Below are positions 777-14,939 of a stretch of DNA of 64,000 bases, piece after piece; within the stretch, counting starts at the first letter, position 1; each line of letters starts with the position of its first letter. The position numbers were made by a program, and so were the translations under genes. Source of the stretch: Anaerolineales bacterium. GTDB taxonomy: Bacteria; Chloroflexota; Anaerolineae; Anaerolineales; UBA11579. The notes beneath the pieces are model-generated. The model saw only the letters and a list, made by a program, of their open reading frames with translations, was not told the DNA's origin and made no database searches. The stretch spans positions 3,152,567 to 3,216,566 of the forward strand of contig OY776212.2 of the NCBI GenBank assembly GCA_963675375.2. The letters are read 5' to 3'.

Positions 777-2012
777 TCAGTTCAGCCCTTCTTTTCTTCT
801 TTTGGGCTTTATTTTTTTCCATAATTCCAATATCCATTTCCGAGCCATCCGAATAAAATCCACCACCGGGTCTATTGGGCATAGATACGTACACCAGGGG
901 CGTTTGACGAACAGTGAAACCACCAGCACAAGAGCCAACAGAATAAATTGTAAATTTGAGCCCAAGAAAGAGAACAAAGTACCAAAGATCTCATAGCTGG
1001 TGATTCCCGGACTGCGGAATAATAAGGCAACCACAATTGCAAACCACACCACACCGCGGCGCAGCCACATTAAGAAATTCCGGTAGCGTCCGGGAGAATA
1101 AACCTTTGCCCCTCCCACTGCGCCCATACACTCTTGCGCGGCACCAAAAGGGCAAAACCAATAACAATATGGATTTTTATTATCCACGGTGAATACGAAC
1201 AGAATACCTCCAAGCAGCAGATACCAGTACAGGCTGGTGCGCCAATTCGGCCAAAAGCCCAACAACAACTTATTGAAATAAGCCAGGGTCAACGGCGCGT
1301 TATACACAAAGCCCAACACCACCAAACCAACCAGCATCGCCACCCAGCGGAGTTGTTTCTTGTATTTAAATTTGCCCTGATGACCAATAAAACCAACCCC
1401 AAACAAAGCCAGCAGTGTAATTTCAGGAACGCCAAATACAATTTTGGGTTTGGCCTGTGACGGCAGTGATAGACCGAGTTGTTCACCTGCAACTTCCCTG
1501 CTCCCTGCTAAGACCGCTTGCGCAATCGCCCTGGATGTGTAGGTTGCACTGGTCACGCCATCAACATCTTCCCCAAGCTGGAAGGCATCCTGATAACTCT
1601 TCCCCAGCAAAGTGCTGACGTAGTCGCTTTCCATTACTTTGCGATACCAAGAAGGGGTTTCCCGGTGTTTGATCACCTTCAAACCAGAAACATTCCCTTC
1701 CAAATCTACCCCCACAGCCGCTTGTAAAGGGCCGCCATACCCATTGGCCTCGCCAATAGTCACGTACCCAATCAATTGATCAGCGCCATCGTCGGCATAG
1801 GCAGCATATGTGTCCGCCGATAATTTTTCAAAATGGGCGGCAGCAGGCATGGCTTCACTCAAAAAAGATTCAAGCTCACCTGATTCAAGCTGATATCCAA
1901 CCAGCCAGGCGGCTGCAAAGGTCAAGATCGCGACCACAGCCAGAATGCGCTCCCACTGCGGTTTTGTCTTCTTCTTTATTTTTTTCTCTGTAAAAATAAT
2001 CTGTTCAGACAT
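777..2012 (-). CDS. rdhC: RdhC/PceC-like membrane flavoprotein: periplasmic FMN-binding domain plus NosR/NapH-type polytopic domain with two CX3CP motifs
   Basis: 411 aa. N-terminal TM helix, FMN_bind-like DGVTSATYTSRAIAQAV (flavinylation-type S-A-T), several TM helices, and CYWFCPFGAAQEC and WCTYLCPIDP cysteine motifs. Sits in the same strand block as rdhAB. Confidence 0.7.
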   Translation of the reverse strand: MSEQIIFTEKKIKKKTKPQWERILAVVAILTFAAAWLVGYQLESGELESFLSEAMPAAAHFEKLSADTYAAYADDGADQLIGYVTIGEANGYGGPLQAAVGVDLEGNVSGLKVIKHRETPSWYRKVMESDYVSTLLGKSYQDAFQLGEDVDGVTSATYTSRAIAQAVLAGSREVAGEQLGLSLPSQAKPKIVFGVPEITLLALFGVGFIGHQGKFKYKKQLRWVAMLVGLVVLGFVYNAPLTLAYFNKLLLGFWPNWRTSLYWYLLLGGILFVFTVDNKNPYCYWFCPFGAAQECMGAVGGAKVYSPGRYRNFLMWLRRGVVWFAIVVALLFRSPGITSYEIFGTLFSFLGSNLQFILLALVLVVSLFVKRPWCTYLCPIDPVVDFIRMARKWILELWKKIKPKRRKEGLN

Positions 2013-2048
2013 AAATAAGTTTTCAAAAATTAGTTTATTAGAAAACAG

Positions 2049-3359
2049 CTATTCAATTTCATGAAGCAATTCTTTGGCTTTCCCGATCAGCGTGGGATCA
2101 TCAAAATCCTCAAAATAGCCAATTGCTTTCCGGCACCATTCCGCTGCCAGCACAAGATCACCCTGATCGCGATAACTCATTGCCAGCATGCAGCATTGCT
2201 CTCCTGCAATGCGAATATCACCCAGCTTTTCAGCCGCTTCCAAAGCAAGATGCGAATATAGCATGGATTGTTCTAGATGCCCAAGGTCTGCATTGATCGC
2301 CGCCAACCGGCCCAATAATCGAGCTTCGACCTCCCGCTTCTGTAGTCGTACAGAAAGCTCATGTGCAGCCTCGTAGTCTTGTAAAGCCGCCTCTAATTTT
2401 TCCTGGTCATAATAGGTATTTGCCCGATTCGTTAAGATCGTGAGCTGTGCGGTTTTGTCCTGCTGCTGCTCCGCAAAACGCAATGCAGCATCCATCACAT
2501 CAAGGGCTTCATCCAATTTGTTCTTGCTGATCAGCAGCATAATAAGCGCTTCTTCGTAAGATTTTTGAGTCAGATAGTCACCAGCCTCAATTGCAAGGGC
2601 TAAGGCTCTTCGGGTAGCTTTTAAACATTTCTTTGTGCGGCCTTCTTCTGCGTACGCGCGGACCAAATAACGCAGTACGTTCCGTTCACCTTCCAGGTTA
2701 CCCAACTCACCATAAAGGTCTTGCGCTCTTTCAAAAACGCCGATCATGGAAGCATAATCATCATAGCGAGCGTGGATCAAACCGATATTGTTTAAATAAC
2801 CGGCAATAGCCGGAGCGTCTTCCAGCTGTTCTGCCAGTTCCAAAGCGCGTTTAAAACCATCCAGTGCACCTTCAGCAGATGCCATCTGCATATATGCGCG
2901 CCCCAAATTTCCCTGGTGGATCATCTCTCGCTTAGGATCATTCAAAGTTTTGGCAATGCCAATGGCAGCAACCAAATTGTTAATTGCCGGTCCCAGATCG
3001 CCAGTTTCTATCAATACCAGGCCCATATTGCCTTGTGCGTCACAAACCATTTCCTGATTATCGATTTCTTCAGCGATTTCAAACACTTTCTGGAAACATT
3101 CATAGGCATCTTCCCGCCGTTGGATGTCGTATAACGCCCAACCTTGCGAACCAATCGTGTAAGCCTCCAGCATACGATCCTGGTTTACTGTTGCATTTTC
3201 AATAGCTTGTTCAAATGTAGCAACCCCTGATTCATAGGATTGTTGAGCAATAAGCTGAGTTCCTAATTGAACTAAAGAATAGCTGACAGCTACATAATTC
3301 CCGGCGGTCTGTGCGTCCTCAAGCTGTTTTTCTAGGGTTGCAATTGAGTCAAATGACAT
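2049..3359 (-). CDS. Tetratricopeptide-repeat (TPR) protein, cytoplasmic
   Basis: 436 aa. Repeated A/L/Y/G-rich ~34-aa helical repeats throughout (e.g. GNLGRAYMQMASAEGALDGFKRALELAE). No signal peptide or TM helix. Confidence 0.7.
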   Translation of the reverse strand: MSFDSIATLEKQLEDAQTAGNYVAVSYSLVQLGTQLIAQQSYESGVATFEQAIENATVNQDRMLEAYTIGSQGWALYDIQRREDAYECFQKVFEIAEEIDNQEMVCDAQGNMGLVLIETGDLGPAINNLVAAIGIAKTLNDPKREMIHQGNLGRAYMQMASAEGALDGFKRALELAEQLEDAPAIAGYLNNIGLIHARYDDYASMIGVFERAQDLYGELGNLEGERNVLRYLVRAYAEEGRTKKCLKATRRALALAIEAGDYLTQKSYEEALIMLLISKNKLDEALDVMDAALRFAEQQQDKTAQLTILTNRANTYYDQEKLEAALQDYEAAHELSVRLQKREVEARLLGRLAAINADLGHLEQSMLYSHLALEAAEKLGDIRIAGEQCCMLAMSYRDQGDLVLAAEWCRKAIGYFEDFDDPTLIGKAKELLHEIE

Positions 3360-3391
3360 TTTTTAATCCTTGGGTATATTTGGTAATACCT

Positions 3392-3434
3392 GGTTAGTTG
3401 GATTGTCCATGCTTTGTTGACAATCCAACTAACC
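3392..3434 (-). other. Perfect 16-bp stem-loop between rdhB and the TPR gene (possible terminator, attenuator or processing site)
   Basis: GGTTAGTTGGATTGTC - 11 nt - GACAATCCAACTAACC, 12 nt after the rdhB stop. No U-tract follows on the minus strand. Confidence 0.5.
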
Positions 3435-3445
3435 GTTATGCTAAA

Positions 3446-3748
3446 CTATTCTGCTATCTTCTGACGGTCCGCGGCTAACAAACGCCACAAACCAACGCCC
3501 AAAACAATCGATACAACGATCATCGGGATAAAAATACGCAACGCTGCATTGGGTTCATTTTCACCTAAGATCGTCATAGGAGCAGCCAGTGAAACATTGA
3601 ACAGCCCATACCACAAGGCGGCTAAAAGCCATTTCCACCAGGTCATTTTGAGCCCTAAATCTTTAGCCCAGGTAACTGCACCAACAGCCACCAAGATCAT
3701 CAGCATACCCATTACAAACCAGAATAAGTCTCCACTAAACATTGTCAT
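3446..3748 (-). CDS. rdhB: RdhB-like small membrane anchor protein (three TM helices)
   Basis: Roughly 98-100 aa once the start is trimmed. ATG at 3748 overlaps the rdhA TGA (ATGA). The alternative ATG at 3742 lies 7 nt after GGAG. Three hydrophobic helices: LFWFVMGMLMILVAVGAVTWA, WKWLLAALWYGLFNVSLAAPMTIL, LRIFIPMIVVSIVLGVGLWRLL. Lies immediately 3' of rdhA, as in rdhAB operons. Confidence 0.65.
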   Translation of the reverse strand: MTMFSGDLFWFVMGMLMILVAVGAVTWAKDLGLKMTWWKWLLAALWYGLFNVSLAAPMTILGENEPNAALRIFIPMIVVSIVLGVGLWRLLAADRQKIAE

Positions 3749-5244
3749 TCTCCTTTTTGTGGATTTGCAGGAGAGACCGCAAACCAATTTTCAATTTCCA
3801 GCCATTCAGGAGCAGGGCGGAAGCCTGCAAAACGGCCATCTGGCGGGTGGCGGTACTCTTGTGCATCTGGCATATCAAAAGCGCTTTTCTGCATCCAGAC
3901 CAATACGTCATTGACCAAACCGGTTGGGTCATTCACATCCGCAGTTTTCGCCAATTCGTGTACCCAATTGCTCTTACGGCTGAAGGGACAAACAGCCAGA
4001 CACAGCCGGCAGCCCAACGGCCCCATAGCTTCCATCCAGAAATTGAAGCATTTGGCGGTGTTGACGTACCAATGTTCGTATCCACGCAGTTCCATACCTT
4101 CTGGGGAATCTTCCATGCTGATCGCCCCGGATGGACATTGTTCTGCACAAATTTTGCAAGTGTTGCAAAAATCGGCTACGCCAAAATCAATGGGCTTGTC
4201 CACAGTCATCGGCACATTTGTAGTCACAACTGCCAAACGAAGGTTTGAACCGGTTTCTGGGCAAATGGTGTACCCGTGGCGACCGGTCTGACCAATCCCA
4301 GCATCCACCGCGATCGGTGGGACAACCAGATCATAGTGGGTAGGCGGGTGATGAGAGCGGGCTGGATAGCCGATGGACTTGATGAAGGCTGTTAAGCGGC
4401 CAGCGGCATTCCGCACCCGGTTGTAGCCATCGTAGCTGGTACCGTGCGCCGGGTTAGATAACATCTGATCCCACTCATGCGGGACGCCGACAACAATGGC
4501 ATATTCCCAATGAGCCGGCACTTCGTACGGGCCAGGTTCACCACCGCGCAAATTGCTGTCATAGCAAAAGTCTGGGTTGAGCTTGGTGATTCCGACAATG
4601 GTCGCACCGTACTGGTGTGCAATCTTCTTGATCAACTCAGCGGCATGGTCTGGGCTTTTAAATGGCAATGGTTCACCAATTTCATGTACTTCTGTACCGG
4701 CAAGACCAAAGCGGGTCATCTTATAATCTGAAATTTCTGGGGGTTCGGTGGGTTCAGGCGGGTAGAAATTGAAGAGTTCTTCCCAGCCGTTTGCATACGC
4801 ATCTGCAAGCGCAAAATACGCATCATATTTCATGTGGTTTTCAGCAGCAGTAGGCATCACCACAGTCTGACATTCCCAATCCAATTCCAGCGTTTCCGGG
4901 TTCTCCTCGTAGAACTTAGCTAACGGCTCAGGAAAAGCGTCCAAGCTATCACCCAATTTCCACCCGGCGGCTACTGCCTGACCAAAAACACCCGTGCGGG
5001 CAAAAACATAGTCGGTAAGGTAGCCAGGGCGTCTGATTTCACCCACTACTTTGTAAGGTTTGTGATCAATTTCAAACGCTTTGCGGTTGAAGGTTTGTTC
5101 CACACCCTCAAAGTTTTTGTATCCGGTATAACTATCGATATCTTCTCCAGCGGCCAAACCAGAACCAGCAAAACCAATTACTTGCAGGGCTACCCCAGCC
5201 GCTCCCCCTATCTTCAGGAAATCTCTTCGTGAGAGTTCTCCCAT
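3745..5244 (-). CDS. rdhA: Reductive dehalogenase catalytic subunit homologue (RdhA family, corrinoid/Fe-S)
   Basis: 499 aa. Twin-arginine signal MGELSRRDFLKIGGAAGVAL. C-terminal CNTCKICAEQCP and C-x15-CRLCLAVCP ferredoxin-like motifs in the arrangement typical of RdhA. AAGGAGG Shine-Dalgarno at 5251-5257 (reverse strand). Confidence 0.8.
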   Translation of the reverse strand: MGELSRRDFLKIGGAAGVALQVIGFAGSGLAAGEDIDSYTGYKNFEGVEQTFNRKAFEIDHKPYKVVGEIRRPGYLTDYVFARTGVFGQAVAAGWKLGDSLDAFPEPLAKFYEENPETLELDWECQTVVMPTAAENHMKYDAYFALADAYANGWEELFNFYPPEPTEPPEISDYKMTRFGLAGTEVHEIGEPLPFKSPDHAAELIKKIAHQYGATIVGITKLNPDFCYDSNLRGGEPGPYEVPAHWEYAIVVGVPHEWDQMLSNPAHGTSYDGYNRVRNAAGRLTAFIKSIGYPARSHHPPTHYDLVVPPIAVDAGIGQTGRHGYTICPETGSNLRLAVVTTNVPMTVDKPIDFGVADFCNTCKICAEQCPSGAISMEDSPEGMELRGYEHWYVNTAKCFNFWMEAMGPLGCRLCLAVCPFSRKSNWVHELAKTADVNDPTGLVNDVLVWMQKSAFDMPDAQEYRHPPDGRFAGFRPAPEWLEIENWFAVSPANPQKGE

Positions 5245-5324
5245 ATTGTGCCTCCTTTCAAAAGGACATGGTGAGTGGGTTCAGCACAAACGCTGCAGGT
5301 ATCGACATCGACACCCTCTTCTCT

Positions 5325-5456
5325 CGAGACACAAGCTCTAACCAAATATCTGACTTCCTGCAAAAAAGCAGGTCACAGTTGCGGGACAGTGCCGGAATAG
5401 ATCATTAAAACGATCTTCACCGACTTCCTTGGATAGACTGGAACCCTGAATAAGTA
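5325..5456 (-). promoter_or_regulatory. Cobalamin (B12) riboswitch-like 5' leader of rdhA
   Basis: Minus-strand RNA reads ...CUAUCCAAGGAAGUCGGUGAAGAUCGUUUUAAUGAUCUAUUCCGGCACUGUCCCGCAACUGUGACCUGCUUUUUUGCAGGAAGUCAGAUAUUUGGUUAG... This contains the GGAAnnnGGUGAA, CCCGCAACUGU and AGUCAG (B12-box) elements. CUAUCCAAG pairs with UUUGGUUAG to close the junction. Boundaries are approximate. Confidence 0.7.
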
Positions 5457-5500
5457 CGCTTTATTCTAAAAAACTTGTCCTAATGGGAAAATACTTAATT

Positions 5501-5518
5501 TGTGTGATTTTTCACACA
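5501..5518. promoter_or_regulatory. Perfect palindrome TGTGTGA-TTTT-TCACACA (candidate transcription-factor site)
   Basis: 7-bp arms with a 4-bp spacer. Lies about 35 bp upstream (minus-strand sense) of a TAGAAT -10-like hexamer at 5463-5468 and of the riboswitch 5' end. Confidence 0.5.
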
Positions 5519-5535
5519 CGCCCCCTGTTTTCGAA

Positions 5536-5551
5536 TCACACAAAAGTGTGA
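5536..5551. promoter_or_regulatory. Perfect palindrome TCACAC-AAAA-GTGTGA (second, permuted copy of the same half-site)
   Basis: 6-bp arms with a 4-bp spacer, 10 nt after the stop of the LuxR-type regulator gene. Uses the same TGTGA/TCACA half-sites as 5501-5518 in the opposite arrangement. Confidence 0.5.
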
Positions 5552-5561
5552 GGAGGTAAAC

Positions 5562-8294
5562 TTAAACCCGATTTTTCATAATTCCTAATTGTGTGGCCCG
5601 ATTGATCGCTTGTGTCCGGTTGTTCACTTCTAATTTCGTATAAATATTCTTGATATGTGACTTTAGAGTATTCTCGGAGATCATCAATTCTTGAGATAAA
5701 TTTTTATAACTCAAACCAGCGGCTAACAATTGGATCACATCTAGTTCGCGCAAGGTAAGAAGTTGATAAGACTCTGGCTCTCGATAACGAATACCCAACT
5801 TAGAAAGCCGGGTGTTTTCTTCCTCAAAAGCGTGCACAAGCTGAGTGATATATGTCTGGATTGATGGAGAAATTTGCATCTGTTGATTTTGGGATAATGC
5901 CACCAATAACGAGTGTATTCGCCAGCCTTTATCCAAAAATGAGCGCACATACCCCTCATCCACAGCAATTTCTAATAGATGTAAAAGTAATTTTTGCGCC
6001 TGGTTATAGTCTCCTGCCTGGTCATACGCTAATACTAAAGTTAAACCTATCTGGATCAGATCCCATTGACGCTCTTGGCTTTGGGCTAATTCGTACAACT
6101 TTAAAATCAAATCCATCACTTCTTCAGTTCTTTGCTCATGGAGCCATACCAAGGCCAGCACACGCAATTGGTAATCTATTGATGAATTAAAATCCTCATC
6201 TAATGGTGGAACTACCATGCCGGAAGCCCAGCGGAGTGCATTGTCAAACTGCCCTTGGGCCAAATAATTGCGCGCCTGGATCGCTTCCAATCCAGCAATG
6301 ACTGTTTGGGGGCGTCCATTCTTATTGGCGACTGTTTTTGCATACGCCAACTTCTCTTCAACAAGGGTATATTCTCCCAACGCAATCTTTATCTTGGCAA
6401 AGCTCAAATAGCCTATTAATAACCGTTCAAGATAATCACCATTCTCAGCAATCTGTATTCCCTCTTCAAAGAAAGATTCTGCCTGAGCCAGGTCATTCAT
6501 CTCATAATACAAATTTCCCATCCCAATAATTGCGTTTGAGAACACATTGCTTTTATGCACGCCCATCATAGTGGACTGACGACTGATTTCATCATAGTAT
6601 TTTCGTGCCAGGGACAGTTCGCCCTGTGCAGCCACCGATTGTGCATGGTAAGAAGACCATAATAAATTCATCAGGGGATAATTGATGATCTCTATCATTT
6701 CCATGGCCTTCTTTAGCGAGCTGCGCGCTTGTACTACATTGCCCAGGTGAAGACACGCCGAACCATAATGCCCGTAAGCGATACATTGCCCCAAGAGTTC
6801 ATTCTCTGGAAGTAATGCGGCTGCTTTTTGAGTCAACTGCCGGGATTTAACCGCATCGATTTTGCTGTGAACTGCCACCGCGGCTAAAAAAACAGACTTG
6901 TAGCCAATAATGATATCTTTCTCTGCCTGAGATATCTCAGGCAATTGATCCAGATCATTCCAAATCCAATCAATAATACGCTCCGATTCTTTAAAATCTC
7001 CCTTATCCAACCACGCGATCACATAATGCTGCCATAATTGTCCAACTCGGCGTAAAATATCCTTTGGAATACTTTGCATCCAGCGAATTGCCTGATCGCG
7101 TCCACCACTCGAAATAATCTTTGTGATTCTTGGGTCAATCAGCTGGGCGGCATATTCATATTCTTCCCCTTCTAAGCCATATTCAATCGCCTCTTCCATA
7201 TAATTATGGGCTTCAAACCATTGTGCCGCTCGTAAATAATGGGTAGATTGAAATTTCCGTAAGAGGCTGGGCTGATTTTGTAACAATTCAGATAGCAAAT
7301 GATGATACCGGTACCAGGTCCGTTTATTATCCAGGGGGATGATGAATAAATTTGCATGGATTAAATAATCAATGATTTCTTGGCTGTTGTCTGTTTCCAG
7401 GACATCATCACAGAGAGGTGCGGAAAAACGCCTAAGCCCTGCGGTCAGCGCCATAAATTGCTGCACTTCTTCAGGCTGATGAGAAAAGACCTCGTTGAAT
7501 AAGTAATCCCCGATCAACCGGTCGTCCCCTGACAAATATTGAAGGATATCCTCTACCTCCGGATCATTCCTGGTACTGATCGCCGCCAATTGCAAGCCAG
7601 TCACCCACCCCTCCGTATGCTGATCTAGAAGGTTGACTTGTTCGGGAGTAAGGTTCACCCTAAAAAATTTTCGGACGAATTCAGCGGTCTCTTGGTAATT
7701 GAATCGCAAATCGAACGTATCTATGACCAAGGCCTGATTTTTTGCCCGAAGATCCGTAATTGAAAAAGGCAATTCAGCCCGGCTGGTGATCACAATTTGC
7801 AAATTGGGCGGCAAGTTTTGCAGCAGGTAAGAAAGAGCGTAATGGACTTTAGGGTCACTAATCAAGTGAAAGTCATCCAGCACCAAATGGGTATAGCTGC
7901 GCATGCAAGCCAGGTCGTTGATGATGAAAGTAAGTAATGTGTCGATAGGTGGGGGGTCGGGCGAGCGAATGATGCCGAGAACTGAACTACAAATACCAGA
8001 ATCTACTTGCTGTAATGCAGATATACAATAAGAAAGAAAACGTCCGACATCATTATCTGCCTGATCTAAAGAGTACCAGGCGACAGCCTCCGTACTTTTT
8101 GAAAACCACTCTGTAAGCAAAGTTGTTTTTCCATATCCCGCCGGGGCAGTAACCAAGATCAGTTTTCTTTCTTTACCGGCAATCAGTTGATCGACCAAAC
8201 GAGGCCGAACAACCAATTCATTCCGCACTTTGGGAATATAAAGCTTTGTAACTAATAAATCATTTAGATGGGGGTTTTTCGGATCATATTCCAT
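5562..8294 (-). CDS. MalT-like STAND ATPase / TPR-like helical repeats / C-terminal LuxR-type HTH transcriptional regulator
   Basis: 910 aa. Walker A APAGYGKTTLL, Walker B-like HLVLDDFH, a long helical repeat region, and a C-terminal LTLRELDVIQLLAAGLSYKNLSQELMISENTLKSHIKNIYTKLEV (GerE/LuxR HTH). Confidence 0.8.
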   Translation of the reverse strand: MEYDPKNPHLNDLLVTKLYIPKVRNELVVRPRLVDQLIAGKERKLILVTAPAGYGKTTLLTEWFSKSTEAVAWYSLDQADNDVGRFLSYCISALQQVDSGICSSVLGIIRSPDPPPIDTLLTFIINDLACMRSYTHLVLDDFHLISDPKVHYALSYLLQNLPPNLQIVITSRAELPFSITDLRAKNQALVIDTFDLRFNYQETAEFVRKFFRVNLTPEQVNLLDQHTEGWVTGLQLAAISTRNDPEVEDILQYLSGDDRLIGDYLFNEVFSHQPEEVQQFMALTAGLRRFSAPLCDDVLETDNSQEIIDYLIHANLFIIPLDNKRTWYRYHHLLSELLQNQPSLLRKFQSTHYLRAAQWFEAHNYMEEAIEYGLEGEEYEYAAQLIDPRITKIISSGGRDQAIRWMQSIPKDILRRVGQLWQHYVIAWLDKGDFKESERIIDWIWNDLDQLPEISQAEKDIIIGYKSVFLAAVAVHSKIDAVKSRQLTQKAAALLPENELLGQCIAYGHYGSACLHLGNVVQARSSLKKAMEMIEIINYPLMNLLWSSYHAQSVAAQGELSLARKYYDEISRQSTMMGVHKSNVFSNAIIGMGNLYYEMNDLAQAESFFEEGIQIAENGDYLERLLIGYLSFAKIKIALGEYTLVEEKLAYAKTVANKNGRPQTVIAGLEAIQARNYLAQGQFDNALRWASGMVVPPLDEDFNSSIDYQLRVLALVWLHEQRTEEVMDLILKLYELAQSQERQWDLIQIGLTLVLAYDQAGDYNQAQKLLLHLLEIAVDEGYVRSFLDKGWRIHSLLVALSQNQQMQISPSIQTYITQLVHAFEEENTRLSKLGIRYREPESYQLLTLRELDVIQLLAAGLSYKNLSQELMISENTLKSHIKNIYTKLEVNNRTQAINRATQLGIMKNRV

Positions 8295-13713: not shown

Positions 13714-14939
13714 TAGACCTCTTTCATAAGTTGTAAAAGTCAAAACAAGTTCTGACACTCATGATATTAAGCGCTGATAAAATACGAGTTAGAATCTTGC
13801 TGCGGAATCACCTCCTGCGAAAATAGTGTATCAAGCTCCTTCTCTTTTGACAAATGACGTGTGTCAGAGAAGGTTTGCATCGGCGTACGCCCGTGACAGT
13901 ATTTCCCACTGTGCGGGCGTTCTTCGTTGTAAAAATGGATCCAAGTATCTAGGTCGGCCTGCAAATCTTCCAGTGAAGCGTAGATTTTCTTGCGGAAAGC
14001 AAGATCATAAAATTCTTCTTTGATGGTGCGGTGGAAGCGTTCGCAGATGCCGTTGGTTTGGGGATGGCGGGTCTTGGTACGACTGTGGTCGATATTTTCG
14101 ATGGCCAGATAGAGTTGGTATTCGTGGTTTTCCAACTTGCCATTGTATTCTGTGCCCCGGTCAGTCAGGATACGCAGCAGATCAACTTCTTGAGTCTCAA
14201 ACCAGGGGATGACCCTGTCATTGAGCAGATCGGCAGCAGTGATAGCATGCTTGCTGGTGTACAGCTTGGCAAAACCTGCTTTGCAATAGGTATCTATGAA
14301 AGTTTGCTGGTAAATACGGCCAATGCCTTTGATCGTGCCCACGTAGTAGGTATCCTGGGCTCCTAGATAGCCAGGATGTTCCGTTTCGATCTCACCGTGG
14401 GCTTCTCGTTCTTCTTTGGCTTTTTCCATCGCCTGAAGCTGCGATTCGGTCAAAACCAGGTTTTCAGCGGCAGCCTTTTCTTCCAGCGCTTTCAGACGCT
14501 TTTTGAAGGTTTCCAGGCCATGACGCAACCAGATTGAACGCACTCCGCCAGGTGAAACAAAAACACCTTCTTGCTTGAGTATATTGGATACGCGGAGTTG
14601 CCCCAGTGCGGGATTGTCAGTGGCAATCTTCACCACCGCATCTTCCACCTGTGGGTCTACTCGATTCTTTGGATTTGGTTTACTGCGGCTCAGTTCGCGC
14701 AGACCTTCAGAACCCTGTTCATCGTACAATTCTTTGAACCGGTAATAGCTGTCCCGTGAGAACCCCATGATCTTGCATGCTTCGCTAACATTCCCCAGGT
14801 GTTCTGCCAGGTTGATTAGCCCCATTTTATTTTTGACTACTTTTTCTGCTGTGGTCATCTTTCACTCCTTTTCAATCTCTTGATTGTAATTGGAGTGTCA
14901 GATTAAGTCTTGACTATCTCAACTTATGAAAGAGGTCTA
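13714..14939 (-). mobile_element. IS481-family insertion sequence (1226 bp)
   Basis: Perfect 20-bp terminal inverted repeats TAGACCTCTTTCATAAGTTG, with further partial matches out to about 47 bp ending in CTGACACTC. Single transposase ORF. TA/CTA at both junctions. Confidence 0.75.
13767..14858 (-). CDS. IS481-family DDE transposase (HTH plus rve integrase core)
   Basis: 363 aa. N-terminal HTH (LGNVSEACKIMGFSRDSYYRFKE), LRELSRSKPNPKN, and an integrase core ending HPQTNGICERFHRTIKEEF...YNEERPHSG. Confidence 0.8.
   Translation of the reverse strand: MTTAEKVVKNKMGLINLAEHLGNVSEACKIMGFSRDSYYRFKELYDEQGSEGLRELSRSKPNPKNRVDPQVEDAVVKIATDNPALGQLRVSNILKQEGVFVSPGGVRSIWLRHGLETFKKRLKALEEKAAAENLVLTESQLQAMEKAKEEREAHGEIETEHPGYLGAQDTYYVGTIKGIGRIYQQTFIDTYCKAGFAKLYTSKHAITAADLLNDRVIPWFETQEVDLLRILTDRGTEYNGKLENHEYQLYLAIENIDHSRTKTRHPQTNGICERFHRTIKEEFYDLAFRKKIYASLEDLQADLDTWIHFYNEERPHSGKYCHGRTPMQTFSDTRHLSKEKELDTLFSQEVIPQQDSNSYFISA

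Follow-up and report, generated by a model that had tools for sequence, protein, structure and literature searches.

A class-II-like cobalamin riboswitch in the leader of a reductive dehalogenase gene of an Anaerolineales bacterium

Judged by sequence comparison, the leader of the reductive dehalogenase gene rdhA in an Anaerolineales genome carries a genuine cobalamin riboswitch aptamer of a known type, far beyond chance resemblance. The gene lies within the window, the whole 64,000-nt stretch of DNA that was analyzed. The riboswitch class is already known; its association with rdhA genes is new and, across the leaders compared, conserved and recurrent. No report of a B12 riboswitch in an rdhA leader itself was found in the literature searched. 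With moderate confidence, given to this explanation as a whole, we suggest that the riboswitch is functional, has a class-II architecture and would bind its ligand, and that it attenuates transcription through hairpin P13 and a terminator, corrinoid most likely being an OFF signal.

The riboswitch precedes the following operon:

3745-5244, minus strand: rdhA, reductive dehalogenase catalytic subunit of 499 aa with a TAT signal and two 4Fe-4S motifs
777-3742, minus strand: rest of the operon (Pfam), comprising the next three genes
about 3446-3742, minus strand: rdhB (VcrB-family rdhB was called in the syntenic loci L001 and L076)
2049-3359, minus strand: TPR protein (Pfam)
777-2012, minus strand: RdhC-like protein with FMN_bind and Fer4_5 domains (Pfam)

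The RdhA protein was matched by TIGR02486 (177.1 bits, cutoff 160.35), and TAT_signal and Fer4_7 were found in it. It also matched the solved structures of NpRdhA (4RAS, 9e-44) and PceA (4UQU, 2e-32). Thus, TIGR02486, the TAT signal, two Fe-S motifs, and an adjacent rdhB were all present, as expected of a reductive dehalogenase.

Positions 5337-5440 of the minus strand were identified as a class-II-like cobalamin riboswitch aptamer from an Rfam match to RF01482, our own covariance model (CM R1), and covariation. In a permissive Rfam scan, RF01482 (AdoCbl) matched 5337-5437 (minus strand) with 44.0 bits against a gathering score of 50; the E-value was 5.5e-07 in a 401-nt stretch and 8.7e-05 when the whole 64 kb was compared with 4227 families, where this was the sole match with E < 1. 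Nothing in the window reached the Rfam gathering thresholds. RF00174, with a gathering score of 31.5, belongs with RF01482 to the Rfam clan CL00101, and RF01482 is the family reported for the window after clan competition. An earlier sequence-only reading of this DNA, which had placed a cobalamin-riboswitch-like leader directly ahead of rdhA, proposed a cmsearch check, and its outcome was divided: the window copy stays under its gathering score, while the orthologous leaders L005 (44.8 bits) and L001 (34.6 bits) pass that of RF00174. CM R1 gave 89.8 bits on the window aptamer and 47-104 bits on rdhA leaders, including five left out of its building (L073, L013a, L013b, L042, and L045). Weak matches of the window's rdhA leader to RnaG, Cyano-1, and SNORD57 (E of 0.19-7, scores far under gathering) were dismissed as chance.

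The aptamer consists of the following parts:

5436-5428 paired with 5346-5338, minus strand: P1/P3 helix, CUAUCCAAG with UUUGGUUAG (sequence, covariation)
from 5428, minus strand: conserved element GGAAGUCGGUGAAGAUC
5391-5375, minus strand: conserved element CACUGUCCCGCAACUGU
within 5337-5440, minus strand: P4, GUCGG/CCGGC, with a 20-nt inserted hairpin
5388-5380, minus strand: P5/L5, UGUCCCGCA, with CCG in L5
5374-5356, minus strand: P6, short hairpin GACCUGC-UUUUUU-GCAGG (sequence, covariation)
5356-5350, minus strand: B12 box AAGUCAG

Every motif claimed earlier was read from the sequence at its claimed coordinates. The core motifs GGAA..GGUG, CCCGC(A/C)ACUG, and the B12 box AGYCAG, all at 5428-5350, match the model consensus and are invariant over eight leaders. 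Compensatory changes were found in 6 of 18 pairs among eight sequences; with 16 distinct sequences, double compensatory changes occurred in 10 of 18 pairs and 95.4% of cells were paired. In this larger set, the observed score was reached by none of 500 shuffles, and slid controls were at most 41% paired. The helices of the four-way junction (P1/P3, P4, P5, and P6) are supported by this covariation. The comparison of orthologous leaders that had been proposed as a check thus revealed compensatory changes in P1 and the P6 hairpin, and the placement of a cobalamin riboswitch ahead of a true rdhA is upheld by Rfam, by orthologues, and by covariation. A chance resemblance to the B12 core, devoid of function, could appeal to the score under the Rfam gathering threshold, but it is hardly credible in view of the E-value over the whole window, the conservation with covariation in at least 13 leaders, and the presence of a canonical P13; the orthologue RF00174 scores, the family CM matches, and the covariation effectively refute it.

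The architecture is that of class II: the P2 module is absent (short J1/3), P6 is a short hairpin, and there is no P7-P11 extension. In RF00174 alignments of L001 and L005, the P6 extension of 60-64 nt is shrunk to 6-11 nt, and the alignment of L001 begins at model position 45, past P1/P2 (the P2 module). L005 may keep a weak P2.

At least 13 leaders with the riboswitch ahead of rdhA were found, as well as a near-identical one in a sister strain (L076), whose locus was reached through the RdhA cluster member P0133. Of the 15 non-redundant CM matches in 465 kb, 13 had an rdhA on their own strand at most 200 nt downstream. These genes fall into two RdhA clades with 26% identity to each other. 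The hosts, assigned through DnaE homologues, are uncultured Anaerolineae/Anaerolineales and one MAG (L006) labelled Neomarinimicrobiota. The riboswitch was absent ahead of rdhA in the close orthologues L002-4, L033, L071, L072, and L074. Between the window and the sister strain, the aptamer is almost invariant though the flanks differ: substitutions and an indel lie close to the promoter and to the Shine-Dalgarno (SD) sequence, and the P13 hairpin and the long-range helix P0, both described below, are almost unchanged.

Downstream of the aptamer, the leader contains the following features:

5317-5329, minus strand: P13/L13 hairpin UCU-CGAGAGA-AGA, the expected kissing-loop partner of L5 (CCG)
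5283-5316, minus strand: degenerate counterpart of the P14 terminator, with a hairpin GGGUGUCG-AUGU-CGAUACCU at 5316-5297
5296-5291, minus strand: GCAGCG, a 6-nt gap between this hairpin and a weak U-run, UUUGUGCU, at 5290-5283
5441-5447 with 5277-5282, minus strand: long-range helix P0, AGGGUUC with GAACCC (minimum-free-energy fold)
5236-5276, minus strand: ribosome-binding region with SD AAGGAGG (5251-5257), UCCUU (5262-5266, in UCCUUUU), and ATG (5242-5244)

All 13 leaders have the P13/L13 hairpin, with covariation in its stem (85% of cells paired compared with 72% in shuffles; the observed score was reached in none of 500 shuffles). The CGAGAGA loop is found in a validated L13, that of Selenomonas sputigena btuC (CUUA-CGAGAGA-UGAG), and a near-identical one in A. 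halodurans metE (CCUA-CGGGAGA-UAGG) (PMC9600662). A kissing loop between L5 CCG and L13 is described for the Bacillus subtilis riboswitch (PMC7367189). By these matches, 5317-5329 is a canonical P13, and its tertiary contact with L5 is predicted. The motif AAGAGGG (5314-5320), once suggested to be an SD mimic competing for the anti-SD, is not free for such a role: its AGA makes up the 3' side of the P13 stem, and the GGG opens the hairpin that follows. A reading of the hairpin as a GNRA tetraloop (CUC-GNRA-G with a bulged A) was dropped; validated riboswitches share the same 6-7-nt L13 loops, and the GGUA of three leaders is not GNRA and yields CGG, complementary to L5 CCG. A helix pairing the 5' flank with the box, seen in folds of L073 and L035, was also rejected as a conserved element, being by eye inconsistent over the leaders.

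In 12 of 13 leaders, P13 is followed directly by a hairpin and a U-run, i.e., an intrinsic terminator, which a terminator scanner confirmed in L031 and L001. This stacking of P13 on the terminator in the family as a whole is most readily read as regulation by transcription attenuation. The scanner found no terminator-like site at 5150-5650 of the window, and no intrinsic terminator lies there between the aptamer and the start codon. In alignment, CUGCAGCG of the window corresponds to the 3' arm of the terminator in L001, and the sister strain keeps the window's layout of hairpin and weak U-run; the 5' arm of the terminator and most of the U-run would thus have been lost in both strains. Both the terminator-based platform of the relatives and its absence from the window copy had escaped the sequence-only reading. 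As the window lacks a canonical terminator, the mechanism inferred from the relatives may not apply to its copy, where the switch is probably weaker or has its output through the downstream P0 helix and the SD region.

In the minimum-free-energy fold, P0 encloses the aptamer, P13, and the hairpin. Both its strands are conserved in the window, L076, L001, and L031; in L032 (GGGUUCC/GGGAUCC), pairing is held by G-U wobbles, and the variation in support of P0 consists of one-sided changes only.

The window riboswitch could instead be a decaying relic, rdhA having been left under the MalT/LuxR-type activator alone after loss of the terminator. The missing canonical terminator, the same hairpin and weak U-run in the sister strain, and the Rfam score under gathering agree with such decay, as does the absence of the riboswitch from several close orthologues, according to which the module is dispensable. 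We nevertheless judge a relic improbable: the aptamer, P13, and P0 remained almost invariant between the strains while promoter- and SD-proximal parts varied, the score with the family CM is as high as those of other leaders, and P0 with the SD hairpin offers an alternative output.

That hairpin is a predicted local structure masking the SD and the AUG, with -11.8 kcal/mol and z = -2.17 in the window. Folding gave no significant hairpin of this kind in L076, L001, L031, or L032; the earlier proposal that the adjacent UCCUU masks the SD therefore did not extend beyond the window. A three-codon uORF in this region (AUG UCC UUU UGA, 5269-5258) was discarded, being not conserved in the sister strain. 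Translational control of the window copy would amount to the proposed SD masking with the correct partner: the ligand-dependent state of P13 would determine the partner of the pyrimidine tract UCCUUUUGA, either the P13 purine strand or the SD. Without constraints, the window platform does fold with UCGAGAG paired to CUUUUGA, the SD/AUG hairpin has the z-score given above, and YUUUUGAAAGGAGG is common to the window, L031, and L032. Such control is very unlikely, however, given that the hairpin is not significant in the four other leaders, that the tract carries a 2-nt deletion in the sister strain, and that L001 lacks it; a P13 locked by ligand would, moreover, also give OFF regulation.

No competitive antiterminator was found in any leader, either by a duplex search that compared both terminator arms with everything upstream and used shuffled arms as controls, or by constrained folding with the 3' arm of the terminator blocked. 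The best partners of the terminator arms were only about 1-2 SD above shuffled arms, with a weak recurrent complementarity to the aptamer core CCGGCGCUGUCC, and opening the terminator by force cost 6-14 kcal/mol. An OFF switch would thus have no visible ON state. The second riboswitch of L002/L003, considered as an internal control for the platform, was set aside because it is of a different, translational type without the shared platform.

Because no antiterminator was found, the sign of regulation is not deducible from the sequence, and it was assessed from known systems. All 38 functional reporters repress, including the Veillonella parvula mutA riboswitch on the operon of a B12-dependent enzyme (PMC9600662), and cobalamin riboswitches are described in a review as OFF switches. 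Kennedy et al. equated function with repression, and their scoring would therefore have passed over any activation (PMC9600662). The OFF switch yvrC/btuF likewise has no obvious antiterminator (PMC7367189). The platform parts of the rdhA leaders, the P13/L13 hairpin and the terminator, are by sequence those of known OFF switches. The sequence-only reading had argued that OFF logic would be counterproductive for an enzyme that needs corrinoid and had therefore proposed an ON switch; this argument is not supported, since riboswitches on B12-dependent mutA operons repress (PMC9600662), and the canonical platform stands further against it. Its other suggestion, a device matching apoenzyme synthesis to cofactor supply, is viable. 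OFF is thus more likely than ON for the rdhA riboswitch. Two further points count against the OFF model or sit awkwardly with it: P13 adjoins the terminator in these leaders, a compact layout that differs from validated switches with their P13-to-terminator spacer of 30-80 nt (PMC9600662), and repression of a B12-requiring respiratory enzyme at plentiful B12 is physiologically odd.

Both points would be accommodated by a corrinoid-activated ON riboswitch working through an extension of the terminator stem, which would form an AND gate with a substrate-sensing activator. Without ligand, the purine-rich 3' side of P13 (GAGAAGG) would pair with the U-run and extend the terminator stem, resulting in efficient termination; with ligand, the kissing loop would lock P13, withdraw the purine strand, and weaken termination, so that rdhA would be expressed only with the cofactor available. 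Every leader has the terminator in its minimum-free-energy fold, and the search for an antiterminator gave none, which makes termination look like the default state. When folded without constraints, about 7 of the 13 leaders pair the box with the U-run and do not form P13, which suggests that P13 and the stem extension are real alternatives. It is conceivable, if doubtful, that the compact leaders are the first cis-acting cobalamin ON riboswitches, by which the dehalogenase would be made only in the presence of both organohalide and cofactor. We regard activation as unlikely because no cis-acting cobalamin ON switch was found in the literature searched, and because the GC-rich core hairpin and the U-run would be undisturbed with or without ligand, which predicts a small effect. 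The mutA precedent shows that the target gene is an unreliable guide to the sign, and a missing antiterminator has also been reported for an OFF switch (PMC7367189).

Among characterized systems, the B. subtilis btuF (yvrC) riboswitch (PDB 6VMY) shares with the rdhA leaders the four-way junction, the short P6, the L5 CCG-L13 kissing loop, and a P13 followed by an intrinsic terminator with poly-U, also without a convincing antiterminator from sequence (PMC7367189). Its P13 is UCUG-CGAGGA-CAGA, compared with UCU-CGAGAGA-AGA in the window. However, it has a P2 module and a terminating hairpin set farther from P13, and it controls genes of corrinoid uptake and adenosylation rather than a corrinoid-dependent enzyme; its repression was shown experimentally. 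The mutA riboswitches of V. parvula, S. sputigena, and Desulfobulbus propionicus resemble ours in having terminators and in preceding the operon of a corrinoid-dependent enzyme; they are categorized as "corrinoid-dependent isoenzyme", and that of V. parvula was measured as repressing (PMC9600662). They differ in being class-I aptamers with long P6 extensions from other taxa, and their target, methylmalonyl-CoA mutase, is an AdoCbl enzyme, whereas RdhA is base-off and non-adenosylated.

The class IIa riboswitches (env8 HyCbl, marine metagenome) likewise lack the P2 module and have a short P6 hairpin and an L5-L13 kissing loop, but env8-type switches are translational, with the ribosome-binding site in P13; in the leaders analyzed here, a terminator comes after P13, and the SD is located another 60-100 nt downstream. 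The class IIb AdoCbl eut riboswitch (EutX/Rli55 of Enterococcus and Listeria) shares the class-II architecture and serves a B12-dependent pathway, with net activation by B12. It acts in trans, as an sRNA sequestering the ANTAR regulator EutV, whereas the window riboswitch lies in cis in the mRNA leader, with neither an ANTAR partner nor an sRNA arrangement seen. The rdhA motif of Dehalococcoides (WRC-34-1) is likewise a candidate structured RNA that lies directly ahead of reductive dehalogenase genes; it is a different, uncharacterized motif with 18 representatives and no stated relation to B12, in contrast to the recognizable cobalamin aptamer of the window (PMC11109978).

Upstream of the leader, the following elements were found:

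5463-5468, minus strand: TAGAAT, a -10-like hexamer, conserved in L076
5501-5518: palindrome TGTGTGA-N4-TCACACA, candidate operator for a MalT/LuxR-type activator
5536-5551: palindrome TCACAC-N4-GTGTGA, candidate operator for a MalT/LuxR-type activator
5562-8294, minus strand: MalT-like STAND/LuxR-family regulator of 910 aa (Pfam TPR_MalT, GerE, and AAA_16; NCBIfam MalT, 387 bits)

No full sigma-70 promoter was found by a consensus promoter scan, and the poor -35 fits an activator-dependent promoter. The palindrome pattern is unique in the window, with 0 occurrences expected by chance; the palindromes are conserved in L001 and L076 and also in L033, which has no riboswitch. The MalT-like regulator is syntenic in L001, L002, L005, L013, L072, and L076.

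According to the OFF model, transcription would start a few bases downstream of TAGAAT, from a promoter probably dependent on the neighboring MalT/LuxR-type activator bound to the two upstream palindromes. The nascent leader would fold into the four-way-junction aptamer, and bound corrinoid would stabilize kissing of L5 (UCCCG) with the P13 loop (CGAGAGA). By homology with every characterized cis-acting B12 riboswitch, corrinoid binding most likely raises termination, so that rdhA would be lowered at high free corrinoid and raised when corrinoid is scarce. Such OFF logic would represent compensatory over-production of the apoenzyme, as for the mutA riboswitches.

Organohalide respiration has reductive dehalogenases as its key enzymes, and corrinoid supply is the classic bottleneck for the organisms concerned. 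Known regulation of rdhA is exerted by proteins (CprK, MarR, and two-component systems), and the B12 riboswitches described in organohalide respirers concern corrinoid synthesis, salvage, and transport. A riboswitch placed in the leader of rdhA itself would tie production of a B12-requiring enzyme to the B12 level; conserved ahead of two RdhA clades, it would couple enzyme synthesis directly to the cofactor pool. Annotation at the Rfam gathering thresholds misses some such elements in genomes. Whether rdhA goes up or down with B12 bears on the budgeting of corrinoid-dependent metabolism and, if the ON model were true, the rdhA leaders would hold the first natural cis-acting B12 activator.

Each sequence element that the sequence-only reading had placed in the rdhA leader was found on the minus strand of the window at the position assigned to it. 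An Rfam scan of the entire window at gathering thresholds yielded no match. A permissive scan returned a single element, RF01482 (AdoCbl) at 5337–5437 (−), with 44.0 bits, short of the gathering score of 50; its E value was 5.5e-07 for a 401-nt stretch and 8.7e-05 over the full 64 kb, in which no other match to any of 4227 families had E<1. A score below threshold, named earlier as grounds for rejecting the riboswitch, is thus formally what the window copy shows, but the comparative evidence outweighs it. The curated score, not reached by the window copy, was reached by orthologues: RF00174 (gathering score 31.5) was exceeded by the metagenomic rdhA loci L005 (44.8 bits) and L001 (34.6 bits). 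In the window aptamer, a hairpin of 20 nt (GAUCGUUUUAAUGAUC) is inserted in loop L4 (5391–5410, −), for which the Rfam model allots 3 nt; such an insertion lowers the covariance-model score and may partly explain the sub-gathering value. Insertions of similar size but other sequence occur in L001, L005, L031, and L032, and none in L006, L034, L035, and L073.

The window RdhA has many metagenomic relatives, and 76 loci were fetched for comparison. The closest orthologue, L001 (RdhA 81% identical), has the same gene order, namely MalT/LuxR regulator, leader of ~350 nt, rdhA, rdhB, TPR protein, and rdhC; its leader could be aligned to that of the window, with compensatory changes in the hairpins. 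RNAalifold on 8 aligned aptamers gave double compensatory changes in 6 of 18 pairs. A covariance model built from this alignment and run over 465 kb of loci scored the window at 89.8 bits and recovered five leaders from outside the training set (L073, two in L013, L042, and L045; the L044 sequence is that of L013). An alignment of the 16 distinct hits was paired in 95.4% of cells, and 10 of 18 pairs had changed on both sides, with a covariation score of 0.417 versus 0.176 in shuffles (0/500 reached 0.417); slid controls of this alignment were at most 41% paired. Judged by this comparison, the window aptamer is real despite its sub-gathering score.

The RF00174 alignment of L001 begins past the P2 module, and in the RF00174 alignments the P6 extension of 60–64 nt is reduced to 6–11 nt. 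By these sequence features, the riboswitch is of the class-II architecture described in PMC7367189 and PMC11477304. A box, CUCG-N-GAGAAG, was conserved 3′ of the aptamer in all 13 riboswitch-bearing rdhA leaders, the window included, and folds into a 4-bp stem with a 7-nt loop. Its stem was paired in 85% of cells (72% in shuffles), with a covariation score of 0.477 versus 0.209 in shuffles (0/500); pair 4–16 was C-G in 6 sequences, U-A in 4, A-U in 1, and U-G in 1. Reading the loop as a GNRA tetraloop was dropped, as validated riboswitches (PMC9600662 Table S1) show the canonical P13/L13 at this place:

P13/L13 hairpins (window; the others from PMC9600662 Table S1)
A. halodurans metE: CCUA-CGGGAGA-UAGG
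P. megaterium btuF1: CCUA-CGAGGA-UAGG
B. subtilis btuF: UCUG-CGAGGA-CAGA
S. sputigena btuC: CUUA-CGAGAGA-UGAG
Window: UCU-CGAGAGA-AGA

In the B. subtilis riboswitch, the kissing loop is made by the L5 CCG; here L5 is an invariant UGUCCCGCA. Since the box is a canonical P13/L13, AAGAGGG (5314–5320), previously taken for a Shine–Dalgarno mimic, is instead the P13 3′ strand together with the bases that open the following hairpin. In core sequence, in helix covariation, and in P13/L13, the element agreed with cobalamin riboswitches.

The downstream ORF, 3745–5244 (−), encodes a genuine reductive dehalogenase, as had been proposed: TIGR02486 scored 177 bits (cutoff 160), a TAT signal and two 4Fe-4S motifs were present, and the protein matched the solved structures of NpRdhA (4RAS, 9e-44) and PceA (4UQU, 2e-32). 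Thirteen of 15 non-redundant covariance-model hits were followed, within ~200 nt, by the start of an rdhA on their own strand. The rdhA genes so preceded form two clades. The first comprises window-like RdhAs, down to an L013 gene at 46% identity; the second, just 26% identical to the window RdhA, comprises the first rdhA of L042 (TIGR02486 250 bits), the first of L045 (254 bits), and the L013 gene behind the second riboswitch, whose protein is 61% identical to that of L045. DnaE relatives of ~70% identity bear the names Anaerolineae or Anaerolineales, and by them the window host is a bacterium of that group; L013 likewise comes from an Anaerolineales MAG, and the label on L006 is Neomarinimicrobiota.

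Riboswitches in L013, L042, and L045
L013 (=L044), 2804–2897: riboswitch
L013 (=L044), 6517–6619: riboswitch
L042, 682–776: riboswitch
L045, 644–737: riboswitch

The single L013 contig carries two riboswitch-controlled rdhA operons 3.7 kb apart, one for each clade. In L042, the riboswitch is followed by rdhA-rdhB and, 19 nt on, by a second rdhA; a single riboswitch may control two dehalogenases there. The riboswitch was absent from L002–L004, L033, L071, L072, and L074, with RdhAs 63–71% identical to that of the window, and from the remaining loci below 62% RdhA identity except L013/L044, L042, and L045. Leaders devoid of it are unrelated in sequence to the window leader, though L033 retains the upstream palindrome. 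This patchy presence among orthologues indicates an optional module between promoter and rdhA.

L002 and L003 bear a separate cobalamin riboswitch at 67–166 (−), beside the riboswitch-less rdh locus and oriented away from it (RF00174 50.3 bits, P2 module present, start codon immediately after P1); the gene it controls extends past the contig end. The rdh clusters of this type have a conserved TPR-repeat protein (~440 aa), encoded between rdhB and the rdhC-like gene:

TPR-repeat protein genes
Window, 2049–3359 (−)
L001, 7896–9227
L071, 2226–3641
L013, 5007–6314

A GC-rich hairpin with a U-run followed P13 by 0–4 nt in 12 of the 13 leaders. The terminator scanner confirmed those of L031 (703–727) and L001 (5928–5951) and missed that of the second L013 leader, probably since its stem reaches into the U-run. 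The exception is the window, in which the scanner found none and where alone the terminator test failed: its platform consists of a hairpin, GGGUGUCG-AUGU-CGAUACCU, then GCAGCG and UUUGUGCU. Because the CUGCAGCG segment aligns to the L001 terminator at its 3′ arm, it is the 5′ arm that has been replaced in the window. A decayed copy in this genome is improbable in our estimate. The sister strain L076 (DnaE 95% identical) shares the window's arrangement, which is therefore stable in the lineage and no sequencing artefact; its aptamer, P13, and P0 are nearly unchanged, and the promoter-proximal and SD-proximal parts diverge. P0 is a long-range helix of the minimum-free-energy fold that pairs AGGGUUC, which immediately precedes the aptamer, with GAACCC(U), which lies beyond the U-run; both strands occur in the window, L076, L001, L031, and L032. 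Its support from variation consists of one-sided wobble changes in L032 only. The proposed hairpin masking the SD and AUG, with −11.8 kcal/mol and z = −2.17 in the window, reached significance there but not in L076, L001, L031, or L032, and we regard a translational variant as very improbable. A three-codon mini-ORF (AUG UCC UUU UGA; 5258–5269, −) overlaps the pyrimidine tract upstream of the rdhA SD; in L076, a 2-nt deletion abolishes its stop.

Regarding the sign of regulation, both terminator arms were tested for duplexes with the whole upstream sequence, which showed weak recurrent complementarity to the aptamer core CCGGCGCUGUCC, ~1–2 SD above shuffled arms. In constrained folding, the terminator was part of every leader's minimum-free-energy fold, and its loss cost 6–14 kcal/mol. 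Neither route gave a convincing antiterminator, and therefore the sign is not readable from sequence; the authors of the B. subtilis OFF-switch structure (PMC7367189) were likewise without one. We lean towards an OFF switch, through which corrinoid would repress rdhA: known repressing switches are built from the same parts (L5–L13 kissing loop, P13, and terminator). In reviews, the class is presented as one of OFF switches, and our literature search found no cis-acting B12 ON switch. The earlier argument that OFF logic would be counterproductive for a corrinoid-dependent enzyme is unsafe: four riboswitches precede corrinoid-dependent mutA/mutB operons, and that of V. parvula mutA was characterised by "fold repression" (PMC9600662). 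Plausibly, scarcity of the cofactor would elicit compensatory over-production of apoenzyme. An ON switch, activated by corrinoid, seems unlikely, with several points in its favour. P13 abuts the terminator, whereas the two are 30–80 nt apart in validated switches; in several of the latter, as we read their sequences, pairing is possible between the terminator 5′ arm and the G-rich 3′ side of P13. When folded unconstrained, about half of the leaders have the P13 purine strand paired with the U-run instead, so that P13 and an extended terminator stem are true alternatives. Moreover, the Kennedy screen (PMC9600662) scored repression only.

Upstream of the TAGAAT box, two palindromes were found, TGTGTGA-N4-TCACACA (5501–5518) and TCACAC-N4-GTGTGA (5536–5551); the pattern is unique in the window and conserved in L001, L076, and the riboswitch-less L033. 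The −35 region is poor, and a consensus scan found no full sigma-70 promoter. Directly upstream of rdhA lies:

5562–8294: MalT-like STAND/LuxR regulator

The poor promoter and this neighbouring regulator suggest an activator-dependent rdhA promoter, to which the riboswitch would add a second, cofactor-related input. A regulator gene of this type upstream of rdhA, with a pair of palindromes separating it from the rdhA promoter, is a feature of the clade (window, L001, L033, L002, and L072). The palindrome sequence varies by locus (CACACAAATGTGT in L002, CCCACCCAAAAGGGTAGGGTGG in L072), as if co-evolving with the regulator, which looks like an rdh regulator of another type than CprK, MarR, and two-component systems. 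Between the rdh region and a large cluster for polysaccharide biosynthesis (~8.9–41 kb), with many glycosyltransferases, Wzz/tyrosine-kinase, and Wzy-like genes, there is an IS-type transposase (13767–14858, −; rve_3 integrase core and HTH).

Among the papers searched, none reports a B12 riboswitch ahead of rdhA. The D. restrictus riboswitches control corrinoid operons (PMC4285132), and the "rdhA motif" of Dehalococcoides (PMC11109978) is a different RNA. The riboswitch class is known, and what is unusual is rdhA as the target gene and the compact P13–terminator layout. The riboswitch ties the key enzyme of organohalide respiration to the supply of its cofactor in a clean and testable manner, but its parts are canonical, and there is a repressing precedent on a B12-dependent enzyme.
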